Of a stretch of DNA of 64,000 nt, positions 1,599 to 55,433 are shown one piece after another. A program made the position numbers and the translations under genes. The stretch is from the NCBI GenBank assembly GCA_963780465.1, contig CAWACI010000006.1:11676-75675 (forward strand), read 5' to 3'. The notes below the pieces were generated by a model. That model ran no database searches. It was not told the DNA's origin and saw only the letters and a program-made list of their open reading frames with translations. Each line of letters begins with the position of its first letter. The first letter of the stretch is position 1. The DNA comes from an uncultured Pseudomonadota bacterium. GTDB taxonomy: Bacteria; Pseudomonadota; Alphaproteobacteria; Acetobacterales; Acetobacteraceae.

Positions 1599-2215
1599 CC
1601 GAGGAGGAGCAGGAAGCCGAACGCAACCGCCTTCATGCCGAGGAGCGCAAGGCGGTCAAAGCCGAGCGCGTGGGGATGATGCAGAGCAAGACGCAAACCG
1701 GCGGCCTGCTCCTGGTGCATACCGGCGAGGGCAAAGGCAAATCCACCGCCGGCTTCGGCATGGTCGCGCGCGCTCTGGGCTGGGGCCAGCGCGTCGGCGT
1801 GGTGCAATACATCAAGGGCAAATGGATCACCGGCGAGCGCCGCTTCTTCGCCCGCTTCCCCGACCAGGTCCGCTTTGAGATCATGGGCGAAGGCTTTACC
1901 TGGGACACGCAGGACCGCGCGCGCGATATCGCCGCGGCCGAGGCCGCCTGGGCGAAATCCGTGGAAATGATCGCCGATCCGGAGCTGGACTTCGTGCTGC
2001 TGGACGAGTTGAACGTGGCGCTGCGCTACGAGTATCTCGACCTCGGCAAAGTTGTCGAAGCGCTGAAAAGCCGCCCGCGCGACAAGCATATCTGCGTCAC
2101 CGGCCGCGACGCCAAGCCCGAGCTGATGGAAATCGCCGAATTGGTGACCGAGATGCGCCTGGTCAAGCACCCGTTCCAGCAGGGCATCAAAGCCCAGCGC
2201 GGGGTTGATTTTTGA
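1595..2215 (+). CDS. cobO: Cob(I)yrinic acid a,c-diamide adenosyltransferase
   Basis: GTG start overlaps the cobD stop. Motifs VHTGEGKGKSTAGFG, VQYIKG, GEGFTWDTQ, LLDELN, VTEM..VKHPF. Confidence 0.95.
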   Translation: MTEEEQEAERNRLHAEERKAVKAERVGMMQSKTQTGGLLLVHTGEGKGKSTAGFGMVARALGWGQRVGVVQYIKGKWITGERRFFARFPDQVRFEIMGEGFTWDTQDRARDIAAAEAAWAKSVEMIADPELDFVLLDELNVALRYEYLDLGKVVEALKSRPRDKHICVTGRDAKPELMEIAELVTEMRLVKHPFQQGIKAQRGVDF

Positions 2216-2396
2216 GTCATGCTGAAGCGAAGGGAAGAAAGCGCTCCTTTTTTGAAAAAAAGAAGCAAAAAACTTTTGCTAAACTGGGCCGTGCTTGTGT
2301 CAGCGCCACCGGCCCAGAGGAATCAAAAGTTTTTTGCGCCGCTTTTTTTCAACAAAACGGCTCCTTCCTGTTTCAACCTAATCCTACCACGCTCTA
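2216..2396. repeat. MITE-like multi-hairpin repeat, copy 1 (right TIR intact)
   Basis: Core GAAGCAAAAAACTTTTG-CTGGGCC...GGCCCAG-AAAAGTTTTTTGCGCCGC. Ends ...CCTACCACGCTCTA, whose reverse complement matches the TAGAGC(C/G)TG TIR of the 20234 copy. Confidence 0.85.
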
Positions 2397-6688: not shown

Positions 6689-7197
6689 GGCTGATCATCT
6701 GCCCGCTGGCGCAGCTCGACGCGGCTTTGGCCCTGGCCCCGTCGCATGTGCTCACGCTGCTCGCACCGGGCGCCGAGATACCGTCCTGTCCCACCATCGC
6801 CCTTGCCGGGCGCCTCGTCCTTCGCTTCAACGACATTAACGGGCCCGCAGAAGGCTTAACCCACGCCAGCCGCAAAGATATCGAAACCCTCATCGCCTTC
6901 GCGCAAAGCTGGCGCGGCCCCGCCCCGTTCGTGGCACATTGCTGGGCAGGCATCAGCCGCTCGACCGCCGCTGCCTATATCATCGCCTGCCTGCACCATG
7001 CACCCGGCAACGAGCAGGACCTGGCCCTCCGGTTGCGCCACGCAGCCCCGCAGGCCACGCCCAATCCCTGGATGATCGCGCTGGCCGATGACATTCTTGG
7101 CCGCTCCGGACGCATGACCCAGGCCATCACCAGCATCGGCCGCGGCCGCGAAGCCGGGCTGGGAGAGCTGTTCGCGCTGGAAGTGGCCGCTTTTTGA
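6685..7197 (+). CDS. Predicted protein-tyrosine/dual-specificity phosphatase-fold protein (CX5R)
   Basis: GTG overlaps the cobS stop (GTGA). 170 aa with HCWAGISRS P-loop (6937-6963), LRFNDI acid loop and A.PNP..IALAD motif. Confidence 0.85.
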   Translation: MRLIICPLAQLDAALALAPSHVLTLLAPGAEIPSCPTIALAGRLVLRFNDINGPAEGLTHASRKDIETLIAFAQSWRGPAPFVAHCWAGISRSTAAAYIIACLHHAPGNEQDLALRLRHAAPQATPNPWMIALADDILGRSGRMTQAITSIGRGREAGLGELFALEVAAF

Positions 7198-7315
7198 AAA
7201 AAGCGGCGCAAAAACTTATTGTCCCTATGGGACTTTGGCGCTGAAACAAACACAGCCCAGATTAATAAAGTTTTTTTGCTACTTTTTGTTCACAAAAAGT
7301 AGCCTTACCTCTCTA
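7185..7315. repeat. MITE-like repeat, copy 2 (core only) between convergent genes
   Basis: GCCGCTTTTTGAAAAAAGCGGCGC-AAAAACTT...GCCCAG...AAAGTTTTTTTG-CTACTTTTTGTTCACAAAAAGTAG. Confidence 0.88.
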
Positions 7316-7946
7316 CCAGAAACTCCTCCAACTTCCGGCGGTGCTCCCAGCCCGCCCGCTCAAGCTCCGGCTCCACATGCGTTTCAACCGGCCAGCCCAG
7401 GCAGAGATAGGCGATCAACCGCCACCCCGCCGGCACGTTCAGCACATCGTCGATCCCTTCCGGGTCCAGAATCGACACCCAGCCCATGCCGATGCCCCGT
7501 GCCCGCGCGGCGAGCCAGAGCGTGTGCACCGCCGACACCACGGAATATTCCGCCATCTCGGGCATCGTGCGCTGGCCGAGCCCCCGCCCCGTGCCGCTCG
7601 CGCCGTCGCAGAACACCGCAAGCTGCACGGGGGCATCGTCCAGACCGGATAATTTCAGCTTGGCATAGAGCGCCGCCGCCTCGCCGCTATAGCCGCTGAG
7701 CGCCGCCGCGTTGCAGCGCTCGAAATTCTCCCGCACCGCCGCCCGCGCCGCAGCGCTTTTCACGCGCATGAACCGCCAGGGCTGGCTTAAGCCAACGGAA
7801 GGGGCCAGCTGCGCGACCCGCAACAGGCCCAGCAATTCCTCCTCGGGGATTTCATCCCGGCGAAACCGGCGGACATCGCGCCGCCAGCGAAACAGCTCGA
7901 CCAGTGCTGGAAAAAATTCCGGTGCGGTGAAATCCGGTTCCATCAT
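7305..7946 (-). CDS. bluB: 5,6-dimethylbenzimidazole synthase
   Basis: LFRWRRDVRRF, APSVGLSQPWRF, RTMPEM..YS, LWLAARA.GIGMGWVSI, LE..GW. Confidence 0.95.
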   Translation of the reverse strand: MMEPDFTAPEFFPALVELFRWRRDVRRFRRDEIPEEELLGLLRVAQLAPSVGLSQPWRFMRVKSAAARAAVRENFERCNAAALSGYSGEAAALYAKLKLSGLDDAPVQLAVFCDGASGTGRGLGQRTMPEMAEYSVVSAVHTLWLAARARGIGMGWVSILDPEGIDDVLNVPAGWRLIAYLCLGWPVETHVEPELERAGWEHRRKLEEFLVER

Positions 7947-15673: not shown

Positions 15674-16851
15674 CTGTACAGGCTTTGTTCCGTCATCCAT
15701 TGAATGGCGCCGTTCAATGACAGACCGGCCTGGTCAGGAACATCCCCGGCCCGCTTATCTCGAACGACGTCGTATGTTTCGTCCGCACCGGCGACGAGCG
15801 TCAGCGCCGCGCCGCCCGGTGCGGCGCACCCTTTGGCACAAGCCGAGACATGGAGCACCCCCGCCCCGGCCCAATGCGGCGCCAGCCCGGCCGCCACGGC
15901 GCGGGCATCGGCAAACGCACTGGGGCAGGCAGGCCGCCCCGCGCAAGCCGCGACCCGCAGCCGCACATCGCCGGGCGCAGTGATGAAGCCCGCCGCTTGC
16001 GCCGCCGCCTCGATGCCGCGCGCCTCGCTTATGCCCAGCAGCACCAGGCTGCGCGTGCGCGTGGTGCGCAAAACCCCGTTGCCGAACCGCTCGGCCAGAT
16101 CCGCCGCGCGGCAGATCATCGCCGCATCCTGGACGCCAAAGGCCAGACCCAGCCCGAAGGCGCGCGGCATCGCCCCGACACTGGCGGCGTGCGCCGGATC
16201 GGGCGGCGAAAGAAACTCCGGCCGCAACCCGGCTTCAGCAAACACCGTTTGGGCGCCGAGCTGTTCCAGAAGTTTTTGCATCCGCCTGGGGCTGGGCGTG
16301 GTTTTTGCGGCCAACCGCAAAAACGCATGAGTCAACGCCTGCGTCGCCTCGATCGGCTCGGGGGCGAAAACAGAAAATCCGCCTGGCAGGACCAGAAGCG
16401 ACCCATTCGGCCGGACAAAAATATTGATATCCGCCGCCCCCTCGGCCAGCGCGAAGCCGAATTTCGCCGGCAATGCCGCCAGCCCGGCATCGCGCTCCAG
16501 CCAGTCCTCCAACTGTTGCGCCAGCGCCAGCGCCGCCGGATCGGGCAAGGCGGGGAGCAGAATATTGCGCCGCCGCTCCACCGCCGGATCAGCGCTGGCC
16601 AGCCCCGCCGCCAGCATCGCCGCCGCGAATCCGGGCACTGTCTCAAGCGACAACCCGCGCGCTTGAAAATTCGCCCGGTTGGTGAGCTCGATCCGCCCTG
16701 AACCAAAATTTTGCGCCGCCGCCGCCAGCGCTCGCATTTGCGCCGCGCTGACGCCCGCCGCGCGCGGCTTGACGCGGAGCAAAAATCCGTCGCCCGCCGC
16801 CATCGGCTCGAACAGGCTGGGGCACCAGCCTTTGGTGATCGCGCCGCTCAT
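15670..16851 (-). CDS. cobG: Precorrin-3B synthase (nitrite/sulfite reductase-like)
   Basis: KGWCP....PM..GDG.L.RV, ELTNRAN.Q.RG, LPAKFGF, [4Fe-4S] motifs AC.G.P.C.S and HVS.C.KGCA. Confidence 0.9.
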   Translation of the reverse strand: MSGAITKGWCPSLFEPMAAGDGFLLRVKPRAAGVSAAQMRALAAAAQNFGSGRIELTNRANFQARGLSLETVPGFAAAMLAAGLASADPAVERRRNILLPALPDPAALALAQQLEDWLERDAGLAALPAKFGFALAEGAADINIFVRPNGSLLVLPGGFSVFAPEPIEATQALTHAFLRLAAKTTPSPRRMQKLLEQLGAQTVFAEAGLRPEFLSPPDPAHAASVGAMPRAFGLGLAFGVQDAAMICRAADLAERFGNGVLRTTRTRSLVLLGISEARGIEAAAQAAGFITAPGDVRLRVAACAGRPACPSAFADARAVAAGLAPHWAGAGVLHVSACAKGCAAPGGAALTLVAGADETYDVVRDKRAGDVPDQAGLSLNGAIQWMTEQSLYR

Positions 16852-19800
16852 GGTTCGGCCAGGAATTCGGCGACGCTGTTGCGCCGGCAGCGCCAGAGAT
16901 CGCGTTGCATCGCATTGCGGAATTTCTCCCGCATCGCCCGGTGCGCCGCCGGGTTGGCACGGCGCAGAAACGCCTCCACCTCAGGCTGCCCCAGGGTCGC
17001 CTCGAACAGCAGGTCGAATTGCGCGTCGAACCGGCCCGGCAGCATCGCTGAGAAGGCATACAGCCCGTCCAGCGCACGGGAGATTTCCGCGGCACCGCGA
17101 TAGTCGTGCCGCATCATGCCCGCGATCCATTCCGGGTTGGCCGCCCGGCCGCGCACCACACGCGCGATCTCCTCGCGCAGCAGGCGCACGCGCGGCGCAT
17201 CGTTGCGCGAGGTATCCACATGATAGAGCGCCGGTGCCGCCCCCAGCGCGGCGGCGGCGGCAGCGAACCCGCCTTCGAAGGCCGCAAAATCGGGGCCATC
17301 CAGAATATCGATCTCGGCATGGTCCTGCTGGTGGATGAAGCCATCGGCCCCGGCGACCCGAGCGGCAAAGCCCGGCGCATCGCTGGCGCCGTCCAGCCCC
17401 TGGCCATAGGCATAGGCGGAGGCCGCCAGATAGGCCTCGCCAAGTGCCGCCTTATTCTCAAAGGCTTCGGCGTGAATAAGTCCCGACACCCCGGCGCCAT
17501 AGGCCCCCGGCGCCGCGCCGAAAATCCGGGCCGTGGCGCGGCGCAACGCGTCTCCCTGCAGCCCGCGCGCGGCGGCGGCCAGAGCGTTCCAGTCCGCCGG
17601 TTCATCGCGCGCGGCGATGCTCTGCACCGCCATGTCGAAGATCAGCATCTGCGTCTCGAAGGCATCGCGGAACAGGCCGGAGATGCGCAAGGTCACATCC
17701 ACGCGCGGCCGGTCCAGCGCCGCCAGCGGCAGGATTTCCACGCCGGTGATCCGGTTGGACGCATCGTCCCAGATCGGGGTCACGCCCATGAGGATGAAGG
17801 CGAGCGCCAGATCCTCGCCCCCCGTGCGCAGCGCCGAACTGCCCCATAGGTCGATCACCAGGCTGCGCAGCCAGTCGCCATGCTCCTGCAGATGCCGGCG
17901 CAGAATCGCCTCCGCGGTTTTTCGGGCCAGGATCGCCGCCGCGCGCGTCGGCGTGGTGCGGGGGTCCAGGCTGTACAGGTTGCGCCCGGTCGGCAGCACG
18001 TCGGCACGGCCCCGGCTCGGCGCGCCGGCCGGGCCCGGGGGGACAAACCTTCCGTCCAATGCGGCCAGCAGCCCCGCCGCCTCCCCCGCAGCCGACATAT
18101 CGAGGGCGGCGGCCAAGGCCAGGCGATCCGCGCCGGGCGATGCGGCGTGGATCGCCTGAAGCAGAAGTTCGCGCCGCTCCGGGGCCGGCTGTTGACCAAA
18201 CACATGCAGCCCGTCGCGGATCTGCAGCTCCTTCACGTCGCACAGATACGCGTCCAGCCGGGCCAGCGCGTCATCCGCCGGCATGTCGCGGGCACCGCCG
18301 CTCTCAGCCAACAGCCCCGCCGCCTCGGCGCGGTCCAGAATTTCCGCGCGGAGCATTTCCGTCCGGCGGCGGTCCAGGCCATCCGCAGCCGCGTAATCGT
18401 CGATCAGCTTTTCCAGCTCCGCCGCCGCGCCATGCGCGCCAGCTGATTTCAGCGGCGGGGTCAGATGCCCCAGCACCACAGCGCCCAACCGCCGCCGCGC
18501 CACCGCCGCCTCGCCGGGGTTGTTGACGATGAACGGGTAGATCACCGGCACCCCGCCGCACAAAGCTGCCGGAAAACAGGTTTGCGGGTCCGGCGCCAGG
18601 GCCTTGCCGGGGAGCCATTCCAGCGTGCCATGCGCGCCGAGATGCAGCAGCGCGTGAATGCCCAGGCACTGCCGCAGCCAAAGGTAGAACGCGATATAGG
18701 CGTGCCGCGGCGGCAGATCCGGGTCGTGATACGCCGCCTTGCGGTCCGCCGCCGTCCCCCTGTCCGGCTGCACCGCGACGATGATTTTCTGCACCCGCAC
18801 ATGCGGCAGCGCGAACCAGCCCTGGCACAGGTTCGGGTCTTCCTCCGGCGCGCCCCATGCTGCGCGCACCCGCGTCTGCGCCTCTGCCGGAAGTTCGGCG
18901 AACAGGGTTTGGTAATCGGCCAGGGACAAAAACTCTGTCGGGGCGATGCCGTGGAGCAACGGCGAAATTTCGTCCGCCGGTACGTCATAGCCTTCGGCAT
19001 GCAACAGCCCCGCAATCGCGTCCAGGCTGGCAAAACTGTCCAGGCCTACCGCATGGCCGATCTGCCCCTGCGCTGCGGCGGCCCCCGGATAATCCGACAG
19101 GACGACGGCGATGCGACGCGACGCCGGCTCTGCTGCCGCCAGCCGCACCCAGCCGGCGGCGCGCTCCGCCACCCAGGCGATCTGCTCTGCCGCCGGCTTG
19201 TGGATCGTCCGCGTGTATTCCGGCCCCTCTTCCCGCTCCCCCTCGGTCTTGAAGGAGATCGCGGTGGTCGAGAGGCGCCCATCGCATTCCGGCAACACGA
19301 TCTGCATCGCCATATCCGCCGGCGAGAGGCCGCGCGAAGAGTTTTGCCAGCCCTCCTGCGTCGATCCCGCCAGGATCAGCTGCAGCACCGGGCAACCCGC
19401 CGCGTCCAGCGGCGAGCCCTCGGCAGCCGGGCCGCGCGCGGAAAACGCGGTGGCGTTGAGCACCACAGCCGGGTGCCATTGCCGGAGTGTTGCGACGGTA
19501 AAGGCGGCGGTCTCGGGCGATTTCAGGCTGTCCACATAGAGCGCACGGCAACGCATGCCGCGCGCCTGCAGCGCCTGCGCCAAAGCCTCGATCGGCGCGA
19601 TATCGCCGGAGAGCAGATGCGAGCGGTAGAACACCAGCACCGCCAGCGGCGCGCTTGCATCTTGGGCGTCCGCCCCGGCCAAGGCGTGCACGCCAAAGCG
19701 GGGCATCGGCTCTGGTTTCTGCTCCGGCGGTGCGCAGAGCCCCGCCAGGGACGCGGCGAGTTGCAGCGCGTTGGACCAGTTGGTGGGACCGCCTTCGCGC

Positions 19801-20225
19801 AGATAGTGGTCGAGTGCCGCGAGCGTGGCGGCATTGACGGTCGAGACCTCCTGCAGCCTTGCGTCGCTCTGCCCCTCGCCCGCGACCACAGCCAGGTTTT
19901 TGCCCTGGGCCCGGCACAGCGCCAGCACCTCCTCGCAGCCATAGCGCCAGGACTCCACGCCGCCGAGCAGCCGGATGATCACGGTTTTCGCACCGCTCAA
20001 CACCTGCTCCACGTAGAGATCAACCGAGAGCGGATGACGCAATTGCGCGAGGCTCGCCAGCCGCAATCCCGGCCGCTCCCCCGCCATCCGGCTCCAGGCC
20101 ATCGCCGCCGCCCCCAGATCCGCATCCGAGAAGGACAGCAGCACCAGATCCGCCGGGCTCTGGCCGAGCTCGACGGCAGCGGCGGCCTCATCCAGGTTAC
20201 GCTGCTCGCGGAACAGGATATGCAT
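16848..20225 (-). CDS. cobN: Aerobic cobaltochelatase large subunit
   Basis: Start MHILFREQ at 20225 (the track ORF extension to 20351 reads through the MITE). HLGAHGTLEWLPGK, YPFIVNNPGE, IRDGLHVFG, DVLPTGRN, DVTLRISG.FRD.F, RG.A.NP.WI. Confidence 0.96.
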   Translation of the reverse strand: MHILFREQRNLDEAAAAVELGQSPADLVLLSFSDADLGAAAMAWSRMAGERPGLRLASLAQLRHPLSVDLYVEQVLSGAKTVIIRLLGGVESWRYGCEEVLALCRAQGKNLAVVAGEGQSDARLQEVSTVNAATLAALDHYLREGGPTNWSNALQLAASLAGLCAPPEQKPEPMPRFGVHALAGADAQDASAPLAVLVFYRSHLLSGDIAPIEALAQALQARGMRCRALYVDSLKSPETAAFTVATLRQWHPAVVLNATAFSARGPAAEGSPLDAAGCPVLQLILAGSTQEGWQNSSRGLSPADMAMQIVLPECDGRLSTTAISFKTEGEREEGPEYTRTIHKPAAEQIAWVAERAAGWVRLAAAEPASRRIAVVLSDYPGAAAAQGQIGHAVGLDSFASLDAIAGLLHAEGYDVPADEISPLLHGIAPTEFLSLADYQTLFAELPAEAQTRVRAAWGAPEEDPNLCQGWFALPHVRVQKIIVAVQPDRGTAADRKAAYHDPDLPPRHAYIAFYLWLRQCLGIHALLHLGAHGTLEWLPGKALAPDPQTCFPAALCGGVPVIYPFIVNNPGEAAVARRRLGAVVLGHLTPPLKSAGAHGAAAELEKLIDDYAAADGLDRRRTEMLRAEILDRAEAAGLLAESGGARDMPADDALARLDAYLCDVKELQIRDGLHVFGQQPAPERRELLLQAIHAASPGADRLALAAALDMSAAGEAAGLLAALDGRFVPPGPAGAPSRGRADVLPTGRNLYSLDPRTTPTRAAAILARKTAEAILRRHLQEHGDWLRSLVIDLWGSSALRTGGEDLALAFILMGVTPIWDDASNRITGVEILPLAALDRPRVDVTLRISGLFRDAFETQMLIFDMAVQSIAARDEPADWNALAAAARGLQGDALRRATARIFGAAPGAYGAGVSGLIHAEAFENKAALGEAYLAASAYAYGQGLDGASDAPGFAARVAGADGFIHQQDHAEIDILDGPDFAAFEGGFAAAAAALGAAPALYHVDTSRNDAPRVRLLREEIARVVRGRAANPEWIAGMMRHDYRGAAEISRALDGLYAFSAMLPGRFDAQFDLLFEATLGQPEVEAFLRRANPAAHRAMREKFRNAMQRDLWRCRRNSVAEFLAEP

Positions 20226-20233
20226 GGCGGTGC

Positions 20234-20436
20234 TAGAGCCTGATCGGTTTAAGGGGAAACATAAAAGCAGCCGCTTTTTTGAAAAAAAGCGGCGCAAAAA
20301 ACTTTTGTTTAACTGGGCCCGTGGCGCTGAAACCAGCACGGCCCAGTTCAAAAAAGTTTTTTTGCTTCTTTTTGTTCACCAAAAGAAGTCTTTTGCTCCG
20401 CTTCGACATGGCTTGCCCTAAACCTGTCACGCTCTA
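20234..20436. mobile_element. MITE-like element, full-length copy 3 with 30-bp terminal inverted repeats and TA target duplication
   Basis: Left end TAGAGCCTGATCGGTTTAAGGGGAAACATA vs reverse complement of right end TAGAGCGTGACAGGTTTAGGGCAAGCCATG (21/30 identical). Internal three-hairpin core; no coding capacity. Confidence 0.88.
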
Positions 20437-21474
20437 TCCCGCGATCATTGTCTCGATGCCGGCGCGATCCATCCCCGTACGGCCGATCACCACCAGATGC
20501 CCGTCCCGCGCCTCGCCCGGCGCCCAGGCTCGGGTGAAATCCTGGCGGAAACGCGCGCCGACTCCCTGGATTTCCAGCCGCATCGGCTTGCCGCGCACGG
20601 CGATAAAGCCCTTGATCCGTAAAATATCATGCGCCGCCGCCGCCGCTTCCAGCCGGGCCAGCAGCTCGGCTGGCGTATCCATTTCGGCGATGGGCACGAC
20701 GAAACTCTCGAAATCGTCATGCTCATGCGCGCCATCCTCGGCATCGTGATGCGAGGGCCGCGCCGCCAAGTCATCTTCGGCTGCCGCGGCGAGGCCCAGC
20801 AGCACTTCCAGGTCCAGCCTGCCGTTGCTCGCCGCGACCAGTTTCACCGCGCGCGGCAGTTCCCCGGTGATCATGGCACGGACCCGCGCCAGCTCGTCCG
20901 CGCCCAGCAGGTCGGACTTGTTCAGGATCACGAGATCCGCGGCGCGGAGCTGGTCCTCGTACACTTCCGCCAGCGGGTTATCATGGTCGAGCGAGGGATC
21001 GGCGGCGCGCTGCAGGGCGACCGCCTCCGGGTCGTCCGCGAAGCGCCCGGCCGCCACGGCCGGACCATCCACCACGGCGACGACGCCATCCACGGTGAGG
21101 CGCGAGCGGATGCTCGGCCAGTTGAACGCCTTGATCAGCGGCTTAGGCAGAGCCAGGCCCGAGGTCTCGATGAGAATATGCTCCGGCGGGTTGGGGCGAT
21201 CCATCAGCGCCTCGATGGTCGGCACGAAATCATCCGCGACCGTGCAGCAGAGGCAGCCATTGGCGAGTTCGACGATGTCCGTCTCCGGGCAGTTCTCCAG
21301 CCCGCAGGTCTGCAGAATATCGCCATCAACGCCGCGCGAACCAAACTCGTTGACGATCACCGCCAGCCGCCTGCCGCCGGCATTCTCCAGAATATGCCGC
21401 ACCAAAGTGGTTTTCCCAGCACCGAGAAAGCCGGTGATGATGGTGGCGGGGGTTTTTACAGCCTGCAAGTTCAT
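20434..21474 (-). CDS. cobW: COG0523 GTPase, cobalamin biosynthesis protein CobW
   Basis: ITGFLGAGKTT, VNEFG, ELANGC.CCTV.DDF, ETSGLALPKPL..AF.WP, HHD...HEHDDF. Confidence 0.96.
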   Translation of the reverse strand: MNLQAVKTPATIITGFLGAGKTTLVRHILENAGGRRLAVIVNEFGSRGVDGDILQTCGLENCPETDIVELANGCLCCTVADDFVPTIEALMDRPNPPEHILIETSGLALPKPLIKAFNWPSIRSRLTVDGVVAVVDGPAVAAGRFADDPEAVALQRAADPSLDHDNPLAEVYEDQLRAADLVILNKSDLLGADELARVRAMITGELPRAVKLVAASNGRLDLEVLLGLAAAAEDDLAARPSHHDAEDGAHEHDDFESFVVPIAEMDTPAELLARLEAAAAAHDILRIKGFIAVRGKPMRLEIQGVGARFRQDFTRAWAPGEARDGHLVVIGRTGMDRAGIETMIAG

Positions 21475-21866: not shown

Positions 21867-21996
21867 AACTTCCCCAGTGCGCGCATGCAAACGCGTGTCC
21901 GGGGCGCGGACCGACCATAAACGATCATTTGCCGGAATAAATTCCAACAAATGAAGCTGGCCGAGGCGCCCCGCCCGGTCAACGTTGAGACATGAT

Positions 21997-22165
21997 GGCA
22001 GGTCTCCTGGCTTGCGGATCGAACGCACCCGTCAGCCTTCCCGGAGATATTCCAGTGGCTGAGAGACGGGCGCTTTCCGCTTACAGTTGCGGGGGCAGCT
22101 GAGGGATCGAGCCGTTGGCTCTCACCTCATTCCCTATTCACCTTCACAAAAGAAGGACCATCGCC
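21997..22165 (-). promoter_or_regulatory. Cobalamin (AdoCbl) riboswitch
   Basis: Reverse strand reads ...AATAGGGAATGAGG...GCTGCCCCCGCAACTGTAAGCGG...GCCACTGGAA..CCGGGAAGGC...CGCAAGCCAGGAGACCTGCC. Heads the DUF1636-cobW-cobN arm. Confidence 0.95.
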
Positions 22166-22240
22166 GGCTAGGTAATCTGCCGGCGATTGCTCTGTCAACG
22201 AAAGCGCAAAGCGTCTGGCCCTCGGCCGAGGGCCATGGTC

Positions 22241-22990: not shown

Positions 22991-23112
22991 AACGAGAGCT
23001 TCCTTCCAACTGGTTGCGCGCAATGCCTCCCGTTCTAACGGCTAGGCTGTTTTTGACAACTTTGCGGGAGCGTTTTCCACCAAGCGCGCGTCGGATCGCG
23101 GTTAGAAGCCGG

Positions 23113-23250
23113 AAAGCAGCCGCTTTTAAAAAAAGCGGCGCAAAAACTTTTGCTCGTTTGGGCCTGTGGCGCTGCAACCAACACGGCCCAAATTACAGAA
23201 GTTTTTTTGCTTCTTTTTGTTCACAAAAAGAAGCCTTTCTCTGCGCTTCA
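23113..23250. repeat. MITE-like repeat, copy 4 (core only)
   Basis: AAAGCAGCCGCTTTTAAAAAAAGCGGCGC-AAAAACTTTTG...TTGGGCC...GGCCCAA...AAGTTTTTTTG-CTTCTTTTTGTTCACAAAAAGAAG. Overlaps the LLM gene stop. Confidence 0.88.
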
Positions 23251-24279
23251 GCCCAGCAAGTCGCGGACCCGTGGCATCACCTGGCTCCCGTAGAGCTCGA
23301 TGCTCCGCATGAGGTTCTCATGCGGCAGCGAGCCGGCGCTGTATTTCAGCTCGAAGCGGGTAATGCCGAGTGCCTTTACCGTCGCAGCGATTTTGCGCGC
23401 GACCGTCTCCGGCGATCCGACATAGAGCGAGCCGTGATCGGCTTCCTGGTCGAATTGCCCCCGTTCCAACGGCGGCCAGCCGCGCCCGGCGCCGATCCGG
23501 TCGAGCATCCGCTTGTAATGCGGCCAGAGTTCCTCACGCGCTTGCGCGTCGGTATCGGCCACATAGCCGGGCGAGTGAACGCCGATGTCCAATACCGGCT
23601 GCCCAAGCTTCTCGAAAGCACGATGATATAATTCGACATAAGGCGCAAAGCGCGCCGGATCGCCGCCGATGATGGCGAGCATCAGGGGCATGCCGTAGCG
23701 TACGGCCCGCAGCACGGAAGTCGGGCTGCCGCCGACGCCGATCCAGGTTTTCAATATTCCCGTCTCGATCGGTGGAAAGACGCGCTGATCCCTCAAAGCC
23801 GGGCGCGTCTTGCCTTCCCAGGTCACGGCCTCCTGCCGGAGCAATGCGGCAAAAAGGTCGAGCTTTTCCTCGAACAATTCCTCGTACTGGGAGAGATCGT
23901 AGCCGAAGAGCGGAAAGGACTCGGTGAAGGAACCGCGGCCGAGAATAACCTCGGCCCGCCCGTTAGAGGCGGCGTCCAACGTTGAGAAGCGCTGGAACAC
24001 GCGGATCGGATCGTCCGAACTGAGGACGGTGACAGCCGAGCCGAGCCGGATGCGGCTGGTGCGCGCCGCGATGGAAGCCAGCACGATCTCGGGCGCGGAG
24101 ACGGCAAAATCCGCCCGGTGATGCTCGCCTATGCCGAAAAAATCGATGCCCAGCCGGTCGGCGAAAACCGCTTCCTCGATCACGTTGCGGATTGCCTGCG
24201 CATGCGGCACCAGGCTGCCATCCGGCCCAGCGGTGACATCGCCGAACGTGTCCAGCCCGAATTCCAGATTATGGGTCAT
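23248..24279 (-). CDS. LLM-class (luciferase-like) flavin-dependent oxidoreductase
   Basis: FGLDTFGD, FGIGEHHR.DFA.SAPE, SAVTVLSSDDPIRVFQRF.TLD, GRGSFTESFPLFG, YVGSPETVA.KI. Confidence 0.92.
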   Translation of the reverse strand: MTHNLEFGLDTFGDVTAGPDGSLVPHAQAIRNVIEEAVFADRLGIDFFGIGEHHRADFAVSAPEIVLASIAARTSRIRLGSAVTVLSSDDPIRVFQRFSTLDAASNGRAEVILGRGSFTESFPLFGYDLSQYEELFEEKLDLFAALLRQEAVTWEGKTRPALRDQRVFPPIETGILKTWIGVGGSPTSVLRAVRYGMPLMLAIIGGDPARFAPYVELYHRAFEKLGQPVLDIGVHSPGYVADTDAQAREELWPHYKRMLDRIGAGRGWPPLERGQFDQEADHGSLYVGSPETVARKIAATVKALGITRFELKYSAGSLPHENLMRSIELYGSQVMPRVRDLLG

Positions 24280-25921: not shown

Positions 25922-25950
25922 TTGGTTCCCATTTTTATGGCAGAAGGTGA

Positions 25951-26098
25951 AGGAAGCGGTTCTTTTTTGAAAAAAAGAACCAAAAAACTTTTTATCCCCC
26001 CGGCGGTTGCATGGGGCAATGGCGTAGCCTCAGCCGCTGTCCGGAGTGGTAAAGTTTTTTTGCTTCTTTTTGTTCACAAAAAGAAGCCCTTCCTCCTT
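25951..26098. repeat. MITE-like repeat, copy 5 (diverged centre; overlaps the glpD 3' end)
   Basis: GGTTCTTTTTTGAAAAAAAGAACC-AAAAAACTTTT...AAAGTTTTTTTG-CTTCTTTTTGTTCACAAAAAGAAG. Confidence 0.85.
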
Positions 26099-27598
26099 CA
26101 GGTAAACCGCGAGCCGGGCCGCGGTGTCCGCCGGCATATGCAGCGCCAGTTTGGAGCGGCGCCAGAGAATATCCTCCGGCGCGCGCGCCCATTCCCGCGC
26201 CACCAGATAATCCACCTCCGCCGCGAACAAGCCGCCGCCGAAATCCTCGCCAAGTGCTGCCAGGCTTGTTGCCGCGCCCAGAATGTTCGGCGCGCGGGTG
26301 CCGTAGGCGCGGACCAGCCGGCGCGCCAACGGCAAAGGGAGGAACGGATAGCGGGCGGAAAATTGTGCGAGATAGGCTTCAAAATGAGCGCCCGGCAGAT
26401 CGCCGCCGGGGAGCGCCGCGCCGGCGGTCCAGCCGGGACCAACGGCGCGGCCCAGCAGGGGCAAGAGTTTTTCCAGCGCCTGTTCGGCCAGCCGGCGATA
26501 GGTCGTGATCTTGCCGCCGAACACCGAGAGCAAAGCGGGCTGGCCGGCGCCGCCTTCCACCGCCAGCACGTAATCGCGCGTCACCGCCGAGGCGTTTTGC
26601 GCATGGTCATCATAGAGCGGCCGCACGCCGGAATAGCTGCGCACCACATCCCCCGGGGTGACCCGGATGCGGAAATAGCGGGAGACGCTCTCGCAGAGAT
26701 ACGCGGTTTCCGCGTCTGAGATCTCTACCGAGGCGGGATCGCCGTTGAAGGCAATATCCGTCGTGCCGATCAGCGTGAAATCCCGCTCATAGGGGATGGC
26801 AAACACGATCCGTTTGTCCGGGTTCTGCAAAGTGAAGGCGAGTTCCCCCTCATAGAGCCGGGGCACGATGATGTGGCTGCCTTTCACCAAACGCACGGTT
26901 TTCTGCTCGTCACGCCCGAGTGTGGTGCTGAGGATGTTGCCGACCCAGGGACCGGCGGCATTGACCAGCGCGCGCGCCCTGACCGTTTCGCACCGGCCGG
27001 ATGCCTCCTCGATACGCGCGTGCCACAACGCCCCCTCGGGCCGCGCGGAGATCAGCCGGGTGCGCGTGCGGATATCGGCGCCGCGCTCGGCGGCGTCCAT
27101 GGCGTTCAGCACCACCAGGCGGCTGTCCTCCACCCAGCAATCGGCATAGGTGAACCCCCGGCGGAATTCCGGCTGCAGGATTCCGGCGGCGGGATGCGGG
27201 CCAAAGCGCACGGCGCGCGAGGCCGGCAGAAATTTGCGCCGGGCCAGATGGTCATACAAAAACAGCCCGGCCCGCACCATCCAGGCCGGGCGCTGGCCCC
27301 GCGCGTACGGCAGCACGAAGTCCAGCTTCCAGATGATATGCGGTGCGATGGTGAGCAGCCGCTCGCGCTCCCTCAGCGCCTCGCGCACCAGGCGGAATTC
27401 GCCATATTCCAGGTAACGCAGCCCGCCATGGATGAGCTTGGTGCTGGCCGACGAGGTGTGCGCGGCCAAGTCATGCTGCTCGACCAGCAGCACCGAAAGC
27501 CCGCGGCCGGCAGCATCGCGCGCGATCCCTGCCCCGTTTATACCGCCGCCGACAATCAGAAGATCAACCGGGTTAGCTTGGCCGGAACCGAACATCAT
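26030..27598 (-). CDS. glpD: FAD-dependent glycerol-3-phosphate dehydrogenase
   Basis: IVGGGINGAGIARDAAGRGL, TSSASTKLIHGG.RYLEY, VKGSHI, GGKITTYR.LAE, DILWRRSKL. C-terminal tail is read from the repeat. Confidence 0.96.
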   Translation of the reverse strand: MMFGSGQANPVDLLIVGGGINGAGIARDAAGRGLSVLLVEQHDLAAHTSSASTKLIHGGLRYLEYGEFRLVREALRERERLLTIAPHIIWKLDFVLPYARGQRPAWMVRAGLFLYDHLARRKFLPASRAVRFGPHPAAGILQPEFRRGFTYADCWVEDSRLVVLNAMDAAERGADIRTRTRLISARPEGALWHARIEEASGRCETVRARALVNAAGPWVGNILSTTLGRDEQKTVRLVKGSHIIVPRLYEGELAFTLQNPDKRIVFAIPYERDFTLIGTTDIAFNGDPASVEISDAETAYLCESVSRYFRIRVTPGDVVRSYSGVRPLYDDHAQNASAVTRDYVLAVEGGAGQPALLSVFGGKITTYRRLAEQALEKLLPLLGRAVGPGWTAGAALPGGDLPGAHFEAYLAQFSARYPFLPLPLARRLVRAYGTRAPNILGAATSLAALGEDFGGGLFAAEVDYLVAREWARAPEDILWRRSKLALHMPADTAARLAVYLKEEGLLFVNKKKQKNFTTPDSG

Positions 27599-27660
27599 GA
27601 AGCCGGACTCCGCATGTTTGGTATAAATACCCTATATGCGCCCGCTTGAGATCCGTAAGC

Positions 27661-27793
27661 GAAAAGCAGCCGCTTTTTGAAAAAAGCAGCGCAAAAACTT
27701 TTGCTCCTCTGGGCCGCTGGCAACGAAACCAGCACGGCCCAGATTAATAAAGTTTTTTTGCTACTTTTTGTTCACAAAAAGTAGCCTTCCTCT
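27661..27793. repeat. MITE-like repeat, copy 6 (core only)
   Basis: GAAAAGCAGCCGCTTTTTGAAAAAAGCAGCGC...CTGGGCC...GGCCCAG...CTACTTTTTGTTCACAAAAAGTAG. Confidence 0.88.
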
Positions 27794-27802
27794 TTGGCGC
27801 CA

Positions 27803-34146: not shown

Positions 34147-34268
34147 GTTAGAAAAAAGCGCAAAATTTTTGCTCCTATGAGACTGCGGCGTTGACACCAG
34201 AACGGCCCAGTTTAAAAAAATTTTTTTGCTTCTTTTTGTTCACAAAAGAAGTCCCGTTCTCCGCTTCG
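34147..34268. repeat. MITE-like repeat, copy 7 (left hairpin truncated) between convergent genes
   Basis: GAAAAAAGCGC-AAAATTTTTG...GGCCCAG...AAAAAATTTTTTTG-CTTCTTTTTGTTCACAAAAGAAG...TCCGCTTCG. Both flanks are stop codons. Confidence 0.85.
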
Positions 34269-35451
34269 CTAGGCGGCAGAACCGGCGGCAAAACCGCTGG
34301 ACCAGGCCCACTGAAAGTTATAGCCACCCAGCCAGCCGGTGACGTCCACCGCCTCGCCGATGACGAACAGGCCGGGCACCTCGGTGGCGCCCATGGTCTG
34401 CGAAGAGAGCCCCGCCGTATCGACGCCGCCAACGGTGACCTCGGCCTTGGCAAATCCCTCGGTACCCGTGGGCAACAGGCGCAAGCAATTGATTTTTTCG
34501 GCGAGTTCCTTGATCTGCTTGTTCGGCATCTCGGCGATCACCTGCTTTTGCCGTTCTTCCGGCAACAGTGCCTGTGCCAGGCGTGCCGGGAAAATTTCCG
34601 CCAGAATGGTTTTCAGCTCCGCCCGGGGCCGTGCCGCCTTGCGCGCCAGCAGCAACTCATAAGCATCGGTCCCGGGCAGCATATTCAGCGTCAACGCCTC
34701 CGCTTCGCGCAGATAGGAGGAGATCTGCAGCACGGCGGGACCAGACAGGCCGCGATGCGTGAACAGCGCATTTTCGCGGAATTCGCGCTTGCCGAAACGC
34801 GCCACGGACTCGAAAGACACGCCGCTCAGCCCCTGCATCCACCCCCAGCCACCTCCTTCGAAACGTAATGGCACCAGGCCAGGTTTTACCGGCGTCACGG
34901 CAAGACCGAACTGCTTGGCGATATCGTAAGTAAACCCCGTCGCGCCGAGCTTGGGGATGGAAAGGCCGCCGGTCGCCAGCACCAGGGACATTGCCTCAAA
35001 CAATTCCCCGCCGGCCTGCACGCTGAACGCGACGCCGCGCGAAATGCCGGTAACGTTTTGCGCAAGACGCAGCTTCACACCGTTTTGCCGGCACAGGCCG
35101 AGGAGCATGCCGAGAATCTCGCGCGCGGAACCGTCACAGAATAGCTGGCCAAGCCGCTTCTCATGATAAGCGATGCCGTGCGCCTCGACCAAATTGATAA
35201 AGTCCCGCGACGAAAATTTGGCCAGTGCCGATTTGACAAAATGCGGATTGCCGGAAAGAAAATTCTCGGCCTTGACAGACAAATTCGTAAAATTACAGCG
35301 TCCGCCACCGGAGATGAGGATTTTTGCGCCCGCTTCCGCCGCATGGTCAAGCACCAGGACTTCGCCGCCCCCGCCGCGCCGCGATGGCAGCGCAGAATAG
35401 TCCCGCCGCTCCTGCGCCGATAACCACCACATCAAACACCGCTTTCGTCAA
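34269..35451 (-). pseudogene. YhiN/HI0933 (BaiN-like) NAD(P)/FAD-dependent oxidoreductase, one +1 frameshift near the 5' end as assembled
   Basis: TTG at 35451 gives MTKAVFDVVVIGAGAAGLFCA. Extra A at 35361-35362, then KILISGGGRCNFTN, ATGGLS.PKLGA, FTHRGLSGPA, AEVT.GGV, GE.VDV.G.LGGYNFQWAWSSG. Confidence 0.9.
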
Positions 35452-35594: not shown

Positions 35595-35770
35595 TGGAGC
35601 CCGATCGATTTTGGACAAATCATATCGAAGCGAAGAAGAGGAAGGCTTCTTTTTGTGAACAAAAAGAAGCAAAAAAACTTTTCTAAACTGGGCCGTGCTG
35701 ATATCAACGCCACAGGCTCAAAGGAGCAAAAATTTTTGCGCCGCTTTTTTAAAAAGTCGATCTGGCTCTA
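35595..35770. mobile_element. MITE-like element, copy 8, both TIRs recognisable; its terminal TA is the IS630 insertion site
   Basis: Left TGGAGCCCGATCGATTTTGGACAAATCATA and right ...AAAGTCGATCTGGCTCTA (rc TAGAGCCAGATCGAC) both match the TAGAGCCTGATCG TIR. Confidence 0.82.
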
Positions 35771-36895
35771 TTAATCAGTCCATAAATAAGTTCATGCCTA
35801 GGCGGCGTATTTCAGAGAAGGTTTCTGGTAGAAGGAACGAATTTTTTGCGGATTTTTTTGGAGGCTACGCATCGATGAAACCACGTTTCTTTTGAAGTTG
35901 GCCTTGCTCGTCGTGGCCATCCGTCCCACAGTATCGGCTTTCAGGTGTTTCCAAACGAGTTCGTCGGGATTGCGGTCTGGAGAGTAGGGTGGCAGGAAAA
36001 ACAGCTTCAATTTCCCGCCGAGCGTTTCAACAAATGCTGTTGTCTTTTTCGCGCGATGGGCGGGACCATTATCGACGATCAGAAAAATCGTTCGCACAGC
36101 GCCGATCATCAGCCGCTTCAGAAACTCAATGAACACATCGGCGTTCACACCGCCTTTTTCCTTAATCATAAATCGCATCAGGCCTTTCGATGAAATCGCC
36201 GAAATCAGGCTAAGGCTGTGGCGAGCGCCTGTTGTTTCAACGATAGGTGTCTCACCTCGTTTGCCCCATGTCCGTCCCGCGTGATGGTCCGAACGCATGT
36301 GCGCAGCATCGCCAAAATAGATGTCAGCGCCTTGTGCTTGCGCCATTTTCTTGATCTTCGGATATTCACTCTTCAGCCATTTTTGAACCAACGCCTCGTC
36401 ACGCTCAATTGCACGATGCAAAGGTTTCTGGCAGGTGATGCCGAGCTGCGCCAACAAGCGGCCGACGGAGTTTCTGGCCAGCCTGATACCGTATTTTCTC
36501 TTGATCAACTCGGCGACCATCTCCCGCGTCCATAGTGCAAATTCGAACTTGAGCTGCTGCGGAGTTTTCTGCGTCACGGTGTCGTAAATCCACTTCAGCT
36601 TCCTGTCGTCTAACTTCGGCGGACGACCTGCCAAAGGCTTCGCCTTCAGGGCATTCCAACCGCCACCACGGTAATCCGCCAACCATTTATACATAGCCCG
36701 GATCGTTACCCTTAATGTTCGCGCCACAATCTCGGGGCTTTCCCCGTCTTGCACGCTGCGTACCGCGCGCACCCGCAGCGCCTCCAGGGTTGCGTGATCC
36801 AACTTGCGAGCATCATCGTCTCTCATGCCGAAAAGGAATCACAGCCAACCCAACGCGTCAATAAAAAAATGCACTTACTTACGGACTGCTTAATA
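35769..36895 (-). mobile_element. IS630-family insertion sequence (coordinates include flanking TA dinucleotides)
   Basis: IRs TATTAATCAGTCCATAAATAAGT / rc TATTAAGCAGTCCGTAAGTAAGT (20/23); TA at both ends. Confidence 0.93.
35798..36826 (-). CDS. IS630-family transposase, single intact ORF
   Basis: HTH N-terminus (GRPPKL), WT..MV..LI, YFGDAAH, LIVDNGPAH, FLPPYSPDRNPDELVW. Confidence 0.95.
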   Translation of the reverse strand: MRDDDARKLDHATLEALRVRAVRSVQDGESPEIVARTLRVTIRAMYKWLADYRGGGWNALKAKPLAGRPPKLDDRKLKWIYDTVTQKTPQQLKFEFALWTREMVAELIKRKYGIRLARNSVGRLLAQLGITCQKPLHRAIERDEALVQKWLKSEYPKIKKMAQAQGADIYFGDAAHMRSDHHAGRTWGKRGETPIVETTGARHSLSLISAISSKGLMRFMIKEKGGVNADVFIEFLKRLMIGAVRTIFLIVDNGPAHRAKKTTAFVETLGGKLKLFFLPPYSPDRNPDELVWKHLKADTVGRMATTSKANFKRNVVSSMRSLQKNPQKIRSFYQKPSLKYAA

Positions 36896-37739
36896 GATAG
36901 CGTTGACATTCACTTGGTCCAGATGAATGCGCTGACGAGGCACAGGATGGACAGGAATGCCCTTGGTGTTTGGTCGTAGCGTGTTGCGATTCGCCTGAAG
37001 TGTTTGATTTTCAGGAAGAAGCGTTCGACGAGGTTTCGTTCACAGTAAAGGGCAAAATCGCAGGGCACCTGTGGCGATGTTTTTCTCGGCGGAATCACTG
37101 GCACGGCATCCTGGTTCACGATGGTTTCACGCAGTGCCTTTAAATCATATCCCTTGTCGGCCAGGACATGACCCGCGGGCAGCTCGGCGATCAGTTCCTC
37201 GGCCTGGGTAATGTCGTTGACTTGGCCAGGAGTAAGGATGAAGCGTAGTGGATTGCCTAAAGCATCGACGACGGCATGGATTTTGGTGCTCATTCCACCG
37301 CGCGAGCGTCCGATCGCGCGAGCTTCAGGCCCCCTTTTTTGCCCGCCGCATGTTGATGCGCACGGACTATGGTGGAATCGATCATGACGTACTCAAAGTC
37401 GGGGAAATCCGCCATGGCGGCAAAAAGCCGGTCCCAGACCCCGTTCTTCGACCAGCGCGAAAAGCGGACGAAGACGCTGTTCCAGTTGCCGAAAAAGGCT
37501 GGCAGATCGCGCCACGGCGAGCCCGTACGGGCTAACCAGAGCACAGCTTCAATAAACAGCCGGTTGTCCGCACCGGTCCTGCCGGGATCGCTGCTCTTGC
37601 CCGGCAAATGAGGCTCCATCCGCGCCCATTGATGATCTTTTAATATCAGCCGAACCCCAGTCATTCAAAACTCCTCGCGAACAAGGAGGGTGAATCACAT
37701 TTGCGGCCGAGCCGGAATCCTGAATGTCAACGCAATCTA
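36894..37739 (-). mobile_element. IS5-family (IS427-like) insertion sequence, two ORFs joined by -1 frameshift
   Basis: IRs TAGATAGCGTTGACATTCA / rc TAGATTGCGTTGACATTCA (18/19). orfA 37290-37664 (RTGSPWRDLP..FGNWNSV..RF.RW..GVW, MIDST.VRAHQHAAG); orfB 36910-37293 (TKIHA.VD, LADKGYD, Y.ERN.VER.F..IKHFRRIATRYD). AAAAAAG slippery site at 37334-37340. Confidence 0.92.
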
Positions 37740-54554: not shown

Positions 54555-55433
54555 ATGGATACTGAATTTTTAGATAGCTTCGTCATGGTGGTCGAGCATG
54601 GCTCGGTGGCCGAGGCGGCACGGCAACTCAACCTCACAGCCGCCGCCGTCACGCAGCGGATCCGCGCGTTAGAGAGGGAAATTGGCACGGCGTTAGTATC
54701 GCGCTCAGGCCGCAACATGCGCCCGACCGAAGCCGGCGCCGCCGTGCTCTCCCAGGCACAACAGCTGTTGCGCGGCGTGCGCGACCTGCGCACCATGGCG
54801 AACGAGCAGAATTTCGCCGGCGAGCTCAGCCTTGGCGCGATCTCCAGCGCCCTCACCGGTATTCTGCCGCCGATCCTGGCAAGGCTGGCGCAAAAACATC
54901 CGCTCATGACGCTCTATATACACCCTGGCACCTCGGCGGATCTGTACCGGAAGCTCGCCGATGGCGAGCTCGATGCCGCGGTCATCGTTGAACCGCAATT
55001 CGCCCTGCCGAAAACCTGCGGCTGGACGACCTGGCGCGAAGAGCCGCTGGTGCTGCTGGCCCATCGCGGGATCAAGGAACGTGACGTGCACAAGATCCTC
55101 GCGACCGAACCGTTCATTCGCTACGACCGCAAGCAATGGGGCGGGCGCCTGGCGGAAACCTATCTGCAGCAGACGGGTATCCGCCCGCACGACCATTACG
55201 AGTTGGATTCACTCGACGCGATTGCTGTTCTGGTCGACCAGGAGCTTGGCGTCGCGTTAGTGCCAGACTGGGCGCCGCCCTGGCCGGCGGGCTTGAACCT
55301 CACCAAGCTTCCCGTACCGATCCCGTTTCAGAACCGCCGGATCGGCGTGCTCTGGCGTCGCGCCTCCGCACGGCTGCAACTCGTTCAGGCGCTCCTGAAC
55401 GAGTCAGAGCAGCCACGGGCCATACTCGGTTAA
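54555..55433 (+). CDS. LysR-family transcriptional regulator
   Basis: L.SF..V.E.GS.A.AA..LN.T..AV.QRIR.LE..IG..L..R; C-terminal substrate domain. Divergent from the dehydratase. Confidence 0.94.
   Translation: MDTEFLDSFVMVVEHGSVAEAARQLNLTAAAVTQRIRALEREIGTALVSRSGRNMRPTEAGAAVLSQAQQLLRGVRDLRTMANEQNFAGELSLGAISSALTGILPPILARLAQKHPLMTLYIHPGTSADLYRKLADGELDAAVIVEPQFALPKTCGWTTWREEPLVLLAHRGIKERDVHKILATEPFIRYDRKQWGGRLAETYLQQTGIRPHDHYELDSLDAIAVLVDQELGVALVPDWAPPWPAGLNLTKLPVPIPFQNRRIGVLWRRASARLQLVQALLNESEQPRAILG

Follow-up and report, generated by a model that had tools for sequence, protein, structure and literature searches.

A TA-inserting, three-hairpin repeat at gene ends of an Acidocella genome, probably a non-autonomous transposon

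Introduction

How does a 203-bp sequence without coding capacity come to fill the whole spacer between two genes of one operon, and why do related sequences recur at gene ends throughout the same genome? The locus that raises this question lies at 20234-20436 (+) of a 64,000-nt stretch of DNA (C6:11676-75675; hereafter the window) from the genome of an acid-soil bacterium of the genus Acidocella (G000; 3.55 Mb in 18 contigs, ~63% G+C, estimated contamination of the bin 4.5%). By comparing this focal copy with its relatives in the same genome and in related genomes (labelled by G-numbers), we arrive at the view that the element is probably a non-autonomous cut-and-paste DNA transposon, i.e. a MITE (short for miniature inverted-repeat transposable element).

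Results

The element inserts at TA and duplicates it

The focal copy occupies the entire spacer from the stop codon of cobW (20434-21474, minus strand) to 8 nt upstream of the start of cobN (16848-20225, minus strand), both genes being confirmed by Pfam. Upstream of cobW-cobN, at 21980-22177 (minus strand), there is a cobalamin riboswitch (RF00174, 126.7 bits), and the copy is therefore situated inside a riboswitch-controlled operon. Among 61 genomes of the genus, the cobW-cobN junction is occupied in G016 (MFD04434.bin.1.116, the nearest relative), G067, and G046, and empty in G052, G054, G022, G014, and G017. For the last two of these genomes, the alignment stops at most 2 nt from the ends of the element. 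The empty site of G052 reads CATgccggccTAtccggtg where the window reads CATggcggtgcTA[GAGCC...CGCTC]TAtcccgcg, such that a TA present once in the empty site is doubled in the occupied one (20234-20235 and 20435-20436). The single TA of the empty site is that of the TAG stop codon of cobW (PF02492/PF07683), and the terminal G of the element restores this stop after insertion: the right TA together with position 20434 is, on the minus strand, the TAG that ends cobW in the window. In G016, the copy sits at the same TA and in the same orientation. A second clean case was found at C11:302641, where the occupied site reads ...cgcttTA[GAGC...GCTC]TAgcccttgacg and the empty site of G016 reads ...cggttTAagctttgacg. 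More generally, when the syntenic contigs G000 C11 and G016 C4 were compared, 27 of 91 G000 sites were empty in G016, and in the reverse direction 8 of 68 sites were empty in G000. We conclude that the element is mobile and inserts at TA with duplication of the TA. Of note, the open frame of cobN continues across 126 nt of the element (20226-20351, minus strand), up to a TTG codon, so that an N-terminally extended CobN or a frame bridging the spacer is conceivable.

The full-length form consists of terminal repeats around a three-hairpin core

The full form of ~200 bp carries 20-bp terminal inverted repeats (TAGAGCSTGATMGGTTTARG) flanked by TA and, between them, a ~130-bp core of three hairpins. 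To define its ends, 38 full copies were aligned end to end; homology breaks off abruptly at TAGAGC... and ...GCTCTA. The focal copy, with TA at both ends, begins with the left repeat TAGAGCCTGATCGGTTTAAG (20234-20253, +) and ends in ...CCTAAACCTGTCACGCTCTA, the right repeat at 20417-20436 (minus strand) reading TAGAGCGTGACAGGTTTAGG as reverse complement. At up to two mismatches the terminal repeat had 113 matches in G000, as opposed to none for a control pattern.

Within the core, hairpin 1 (20270-20293) has the form GCCGC-T6-G-A7-GCGGC, and its stem is the consensus in 96-99% of ~580 copies. It is followed by a long central hairpin (20296-20363) with an A/T outer stem (20296-20306 and 20350-20363), an inner stem CTGGGCC/GGCCCAG (20313-20319 and 20340-20346), and a variable loop, and then by hairpin 3 (20364-20388; GCTTC-T5-GTTCACC-A4-GAAG, i.e. 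GCTTCTTTTTGTTCACCAAAAGAAG), which is nearly invariant across genera. Mean consensus frequencies follow the same plan: 0.96 for hairpin 1, 0.91 for hairpin 3, 0.85-0.90 for the A/T stems, 0.85-0.93 for the inner stem, 0.83 for the central loop, and 0.75-0.78 for the arms that flank the core. The consensus folds into a four-way junction in which an outer stem formed from both ends carries the three hairpins, with a free energy of -77.9 kcal/mol as RNA compared to -51.0 +/- 4.1 for shuffles (z = -6.5; z = -6.0 as DNA). In 587 aligned copies, covariation was confined to a single stem pair, 132/150 (TA in 432 copies, AT in 96, GC in 9), whose positions pair in 96% of copies where independence would give 64%; the remaining stem pairs hardly vary at all and are, thus, uninformative for or against the structure. 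Copies are 120-203 bp long and have no coding capacity, their A/T-rich hairpins being too tight for a transposase gene.

To count copies, we built a profile hidden Markov model (HMM) from the 38 full copies, in which the focal copy matches positions 1-199 at 204 bits. The model found exactly nine copies in the window, the same nine that a sequence-only reading of the window had listed, so that all of these are real; the hairpin 3 motif is present at seven window loci and in none of 100 shuffles. The hairpins, A/T outer stem, inner stem, and TA ends which that reading described for 20234-20436 are in the sequence as claimed, and each of the copies at 2216 and 35595, for which it had noted remnants of terminal repeats, keeps one arm while the other is truncated. 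Its terminal repeats of 30 bp need to be shortened: the identity of 21/30 holds for the focal copy, but beyond ~20 bp there is no conservation across the 38 aligned copies.

Its claim of an abundant genome-wide element was, if anything, too modest. In a BLAST search of the whole assembly, the 203-bp copy had 983 matches, which fall at 713 loci, and the HMM gave 746 loci that together make up 112,232 bp or 3.2% of the genome, ~1 per 4.8 kb, far beyond the handful that would have spoken against such an element. By HMM class, 67 loci have both terminal arms and the core, 105 the left arm and core, 51 the core and right arm, 381 the core only, and 142 are partial; the full-versus-core-only count which the sequence-only reading had called for is thus 67 to 381. 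A stricter, alignment-based count of 587 complete cores gave 365 armless copies (~62%), 95 with the left arm only, 54 with the right arm only, and 73 with both.

Copies lie flush at gene 3' ends and supply stop codons

To place the copies relative to genes, we used 641 well-scoring copies and the gene calls of our own codon-usage finder, a crude tool that called 2,968 genes covering 77% of the genome. Convergent gaps hold 248 copies, and 54% of the 458 such gaps in the genome are occupied; 343 copies lie between same-strand genes (2,031 gaps, 17% occupied), 40 in divergent gaps (of which there are 461), and nine inside genes. The median distance from a copy to the upstream stop codon is 2-3 nt, and copies show no more than a mild preference for one orientation with respect to the upstream gene (201 vs 142).

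Stop codon usage at these junctions differs from that of the genome as a whole: TAG ends 23% of all genes and 47% of genes abutting a copy, TGA 52% and 28%, respectively, while TAA is at 25% in both. Approximately 570 genes end at or within a copy, and for 372 of them the stop codon falls within the envelope of the element. Stop codons are most often spaced 33, 26, or 17 nt from hairpin 1, distances which correspond to the TAG, TGA, and TAA triplets of the left-arm consensus, demonstrating that many reading frames enter the arm and stop there. The outermost bases of the element are TA-G, and a copy that lands in the TA of a TAA or TAG stop therefore rebuilds TAG, so that the gene stays intact; this helps to explain why copies lie flush at gene 3' ends in a genome with 63% G+C. 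With ~570 stop codons and half of the convergent gaps touched, gene ends, operon spacers, and automatic annotation are all shaped by the element. Landing in stop codons and rebuilding them represents a low-cost route by which a TA-targeting element can saturate a G+C-rich genome.

Is the core maintained by the host?

The density of copies at gene ends raises the possibility that the core is a host-maintained gene-end module (a two-way terminator, a protection of mRNA 3'-ends, or a protein binding site) which transposition distributes and selection keeps. We regard this as possible, if doubtful. In its favor, the hairpin stems are far closer to consensus (96-99%) than the arms (~75%), the A/T-rich hairpin arms are almost invariant across seven genera (39 invariant columns), cores persist where arms are deleted (381 core-only vs 26 arm-only loci), and half of the convergent gaps are filled. 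Moreover, in a scan with the consensus, two hairpins were terminator-like in 3/4 copies of the scanned stretch, namely hairpin 1 (minus strand) and hairpin 3 (plus strand). In this region, 16 terminator-like sites were predicted as opposed to 9.3 +/- 3.4 in shuffles. However, the tails of these hairpins are mixed C/T tracts (TGCTTTTATG, CTTTCTCTGC), i.e. C/U-rich rather than true U tracts; several copies lie directly downstream of a canonical terminator; and termination by the focal copy, inside the riboswitch-led cobW-cobN operon, would be harmful. The mild orientation bias and the restriction of covariation to the pair 132/150 also argue against this module. Finally, between G000 and G016, the sequences flanking the elements are ~85% identical, and elements and element-free intergenic DNA are both conserved at ~85%, so that this comparison provides no evidence of extra constraint on the elements.

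Arms mark young copies and are lost by internal deletion

Most sites that can be compared between the two genomes are shared: 64 of 91 mappable G000 copies have a counterpart in G016, and 60 of 68 mappable G016 copies have a G000 copy in the same gap. Absence from G016 depends on the arms, with 17 of 31 armed copies but only 10 of 60 armless copies of G000 lacking a counterpart (Fisher p = 2.6e-4). G016 itself is nearly armless, as judged from nhmmer match boundaries, with 100 of 102 copies reaching neither end of the element. At one shared site, the deletion of an arm in situ can be read directly: G016 has TAGAGCA|GAAAGAAAGGCTTC where G000 keeps 31 intervening bases, and the terminal TAGAG, that is the stop codon, survives. 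When copies were sorted by core similarity, nearest neighbors agreed in being armed or armless at a rate of 0.60 compared to 0.53 at random; armed and armless copies are, therefore, interspersed and arm loss happened many times. We conclude that arms mark younger copies and that older ones lost their arms by internal deletion while the core was kept.

The element has the features of a MITE

Sharp-ended terminal repeats, a TA duplication read from empty sites, small size and high copy number without a transposase gene, and insertion polymorphism among relatives together make a non-autonomous cut-and-paste transposon the probable identity of the element. As shown above, insertion occurs at TA with duplication of the TA, and internal deletions later remove the terminal arms while keeping TAGAG and the ~130-bp core. 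Movement would require a DDE transposase that acts in trans and recognizes the terminal repeats and, because TA is duplicated, an enzyme of the IS630/Tc1-mariner type is our best guess. The core would persist either since it does little harm at gene ends or since its hairpins act on transcripts or DNA there.

Several results weigh against this reading. First, no cognate autonomous insertion sequence (IS) with the same terminal repeats was found in G000 or in ~1.4 Mb of sequence from relatives; the at least seven IS630 types of G000 have ends that agree with the element repeat at 7 positions of 18 at best, the IS630 fragments of G014 and G019 do not carry the repeat, and a search for repeat pairs on the contigs with these fragments gave nothing. 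Metagenome assemblies often lose such elements, and the absence of an autonomous partner is, therefore, not proof that there is none. Second, clean target duplications could not be defined for armless copies, the junctions of which are too blurred at this divergence. Third, the median nearest-neighbor identity within G000 is 91%, and no pair exceeds 96.5% outside one duplicated region (see below), which gives no hint that copies of G000 multiplied in a very recent burst. Fourth, among 41 positional orthologue pairs with complete cores in G000 and G016, 16 are wholly reverse-complemented, arms included, while their flanks align normally. Such flips are not predicted by simple descent.

The sequence-only reading had called for a search for an autonomous IS with ends beginning in TAGAGC; in G000 none was found. 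The candidates considered included pairs of inverted terminal repeats spaced 0.2-4 kb apart in G000, all of which turned out to be two separate copies flanking ordinary genes (rplO-like, NifU-like), and the IS5-family (PF13586) elements, the derived ends of which are unlike the element repeat. The load of TA-targeting insertion sequences in G000 is unusually rich, with 31 matches to IS630-family transposases (DDE_3, PF13358) that account for the types mentioned above, and several IS5-family types in addition. Two of these elements, stacked on shared TA dinucleotides, occupy 35770-37739 and directly adjoin the copy at 35596-35769. One, of ~1,123 bp and with ends TTAATCAGTCC..., belongs to the IS630 family, and the next, of 847 bp and with ends GATWGCGTTGACATTCA and the target CTAG, to the IS5 family; each is found at other places in the genome in several near-identical copies and has ends unrelated to the element repeat.

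Copies at shared sites: descent, replacement, or inversion

The flips bear on the question of whether copies at shared sites are inherited at all. Alternatively, they could result from independent insertion into hot-spot TA sites or from continual replacement of residents, in which case the family would be younger and more active than its divergence suggests. The flipped fraction of positional orthologues (39%) is not significantly different from the 50% expected of independent insertions (p = 0.21). Same-orientation pairs are 84% identical, flipped pairs 85% once re-oriented, and random paralogues 83%, such that orthologues are no more alike than paralogues and identity cannot separate descent from re-insertion. 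In addition, shared sites include a two-sided change of hairpin 3 (GCTAC/GTAGC vs GCTTC/GAAGC), and the gap at 7178-7316 is in four states in four species: a core on the plus strand in G000, a core on the minus strand in G016, hairpin 1 only together with a G+C-rich hairpin in G052, and nothing in G054. Nevertheless, we consider wholesale independent insertion rather unlikely. Occupancy of 60 of 68 G016 sites in G000 would need a saturation of permissive sites of ~85%, while actual occupancy is 54% for convergent and 17% for same-strand gaps; several same-orientation pairs have identical junctions and long identical stretches; and near-identical copies are absent within G000. The flips could reflect repeated insertion into the same few permissive TA sites or an inversion in place, for which the terminal repeats would recombine or allow a template switch. 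Turnover versus inversion in place is a testable question.

The core is family-wide and the terminal repeats have a second carrier

The element is abundant here, as the sequence-only reading claimed, but its three-hairpin core is also found beyond G000, and most copies lack the terminal repeats. An exact-pattern scan for hairpin 1 in one genome per species returned records of Acidocella sp. and a few loosely named metagenome bins. When 151 genomes of the order were searched with the core consensus, 24 had matches, and these belong to 10 of the 47 sampled Acetobacteraceae genera, including Acidiphilium, with first-look counts of candidate word matches of up to 1,826 in one genome. Cores aligned from seven genera share a common plan, in which two A/T-tract hairpins enclose, in this order, AAAAAACTTTTG, a variable hairpin in the center, and CAAAAGTTTTTTT, and it is in this alignment that the 39 invariant columns mentioned above were counted; in hairpin 1, the base pair is GC in some copies and CG in others.

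In a plasmid collection, blastn with the terminal repeat and with the whole element gave no match, while the core consensus gave one partial match, a core copy on plasmid pACMV3 of Acidiphilium multivorum (NC_015179.1, 12234-12380) between two ABC-transporter genes. A RefSeq "hypothetical protein", ACMV_RS21045, is annotated across this copy and is probably a spurious gene call. A phage collection gave no match, a negative for which the BLAST low-complexity filter may hide matches in A/T runs. The core occurs without the TAGAGC terminal repeats both in 10 of the 47 sampled genera and on pACMV3.

The converse also holds. At up to two mismatches, the terminal repeat is present in 39 of 63 genomes of the genus (control pattern, 0-1 matches), including genomes without any match to the whole element. 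In G014, G017, G019, G070, and G222, and also in G002 and G049, the same 20-bp repeat (TAGAGCSTGATCGNTTKARG) and TA flank an unrelated MITE of 105-127 bp. This apparently unnamed MITE of sibling Acidocella species is like the element in its terminal repeat and TA flanks and unlike it in its internal sequence, which lacks the three-hairpin core. G014 has at least 52 copies at ~91-100% identity and G049 has 80 matches, compared to two or three weak matches in G000. The copy identity in G014 points to recent activity of the 105-bp family there, and this activity in turn suggests that a trans-acting enzyme exists, or recently existed, in the genus. As a separate observation, one end of the 105-127-bp MITE is a 35-bp palindrome of two back-to-back terminal repeats, and G014 has tandem copies.

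Because the same repeats flank an unrelated element and the core exists without them, the 200-bp form would be a chimera, in which a family-wide three-hairpin module lies between the terminal repeats of a genus-level, TA-inserting MITE and was spread by them. We considered whether the core was nested into such a MITE. However, TA is present at the internal positions 17-18 and 183-184 in only 55% and 37%, respectively, of armed copies, and nesting cannot, therefore, be distinguished from an exchange of cargo. In either case, the combination of a family-wide hairpin module with genus-level terminal repeats would give a tangible example of how small mobile repeats exchange modules. A more far-reaching version would be that the core is a selected, Acetobacteraceae-wide gene-end module that unrelated TA-transposons have repeatedly captured and re-spread, that stands at the stop codons of approximately one-fifth of the genes, and that can invert in place. 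We think this unlikely; if true, the core would be more than selfish DNA, namely a domesticated signal that can be carried from site to site and punctuates gene ends.

A RAYT-driven repeat and an RNA gene family fit poorly

It is very improbable that the element is a repeat of the repetitive extragenic palindromic (REP)/REPIN type moved by a REP-associated tyrosine transposase (RAYT), in which two inverted palindromic units would form the mobile doublet. The core is indeed an imperfect palindrome of two inverted hairpin units, and hundreds of extragenic copies lie at gene 3' ends, as this proposal would have it. Yet, terminal inverted repeats and duplication of TA, both found in the element, are foreign to REPs, which are G+C-rich palindromes of 20-40 bp beside a GTAG or CGTC tag, and the element carries neither tag; of note, CGTC-type REPs were reported missing in Acetobacteraceae (Di Nocera et al., PMC3733652). 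The only transposases of the IS200/IS605 type (TnpA, Y1) in G000 are two frameshifted or truncated remnants (C12:469025-469213 and C12:508987-509157) that are not flanked by copies, and a Y1 transposase (PF01797) is present in just 4 of the 61 genus genomes and in none of the high-copy genomes G016, G004, G052, G046, and G067.

It is similarly hard to credit that the copies are small RNA genes or cis-regulatory RNAs and not a mobile element: the predicted structure is strong (z = -6.5) and Rfam gave two weak matches, but no family reached its gathering score (best, Plastid-psbA-2 with 30.5 vs 55.8 bits and Brucella sRNA CI27 with 22 vs 59.8), copies occur in both orientations relative to neighboring genes, covariation is almost absent, and insertion polymorphism, TA duplication, and terminal repeats are those of a mobile element.

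Discussion

Consistent with the remark of the sequence-only reading that it could not be matched to a named family, no Rfam family reached threshold and no description was found in the literature searched; the element is apparently undescribed. By analogy, it would belong beside the TA-duplicating bacterial MITEs (Correia/NEMIS, RUP, Nezha, ERIC), with which it shares all defining MITE features except a known parent IS.

Among the closest parallels are the Correia/NEMIS elements of Neisseria, which are non-coding, ~100-155 bp long, carry terminal inverted repeats, insert at TA with duplication, and reach hundreds of copies and a few percent of the genome. They lie near genes and are co-transcribed with them, and the whole element can fold as a long hairpin. 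To our knowledge, they have no cognate transposase. The likeness to the Acidocella element thus extends to small non-coding size, terminal repeats, TA duplication, copy number, gene proximity with probable co-transcription, folding of the whole element, and the lack of a known cognate transposase. Correia/NEMIS have a characteristic terminal repeat of 26 bp, contain an IHF site, and are known only from Neisseria. By contrast, the terminal repeat in Acidocella (TAGAGCSTGATMGG) appears unrelated to that of Correia, three internal hairpins with A/T-tract stems are present, no IHF-like site was seen in the element, and the hosts are Acetobacteraceae, which belong to a different class.

RUP of Streptococcus pneumoniae and Nezha of cyanobacteria are also short, non-autonomous, and TA-duplicating, with terminal repeats. 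They are derived from IS630 elements, and transposases of the IS630 family are presumed to mobilize them in trans. The link between parent and offspring sets them apart from the Acidocella element, whose repeats match no IS630 type of G000.

ERIC/IRU and the enterobacterial small mobile sequences RU-1 and RU-2 (see Delihas, PMC2229807 and PMC2759123) resemble the element as imperfect palindromes of ~127 bp that occupy transcribed intergenic sites, including operons and positions by stop codons, and come in modular length variants. The element shares no sequence similarity with them, is found in another host family, has a much higher copy number, and has arms that are demonstrably gained and lost.

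With the REP/BIME/REPIN-RAYT systems, the element has in common palindromic extragenic repeats at gene 3' ends, a mosaic of hairpin units, and hundreds of copies; unlike them, it has no RAYT and neither tag, possesses terminal repeats and a TA duplication, and has A/T-rich rather than G+C-rich hairpins. Noteworthy in the Acidocella element are the rebuilding of stop codons on a genome scale, the probable chimeric origin, and the flips of whole elements at shared sites. In practical terms, dense polymorphic copies could serve as Acidocella strain markers in acidic soils and peat.

The other copies in the window, placed by HMM match, illustrate the range of forms. The copy at 2214-2396 (minus strand) has an intact left arm and a truncated right arm, lies inside the cob operon, and is absent in G016, G052, and G054. 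At this site, ~70 nt extra follow the copy, and the entire insert (2214-2466) has a TTTGA on either side; this TTTGA is where the two cob genes of three relatives overlap (stop TGA, start TTG), and the duplication of TTTGA appears to have kept both the stop and the start. The copy at 35596-35769 (minus strand; HMM match 35596-35757) has a right arm and a truncated left arm and abuts the IS630-family element of the stack described above. Of the copies in convergent gaps, the one at 7178-7316 (+) is an armless core, that at 34148-34269 (+) fills its gap, the gene stops being at 34146 and 34269, and that at 55455-55604 (minus strand) is a core copy between genes 54555-55433 (+) and 55610-56920 (minus strand). 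A core copy at 23103-23254 (+) lies between same-strand genes and holds at its edge the stop codon of the gene at 23248-24279 (minus strand); a diverged core copy at 25945-26097 (+) contains the end of the open reading frame 26030-27598 (minus strand); and the core copy at 27657-27796 (+) carries the GCTAC...GTAGC variant of hairpin 3.

Finally, the only near-identical copies in G000 are four that are 98.7-100% identical and lie in mirrored order on C1 (~42.9-49.3 kb) and C14 (~41.4-47.8 kb), which points to a region that is duplicated or redundantly assembled.

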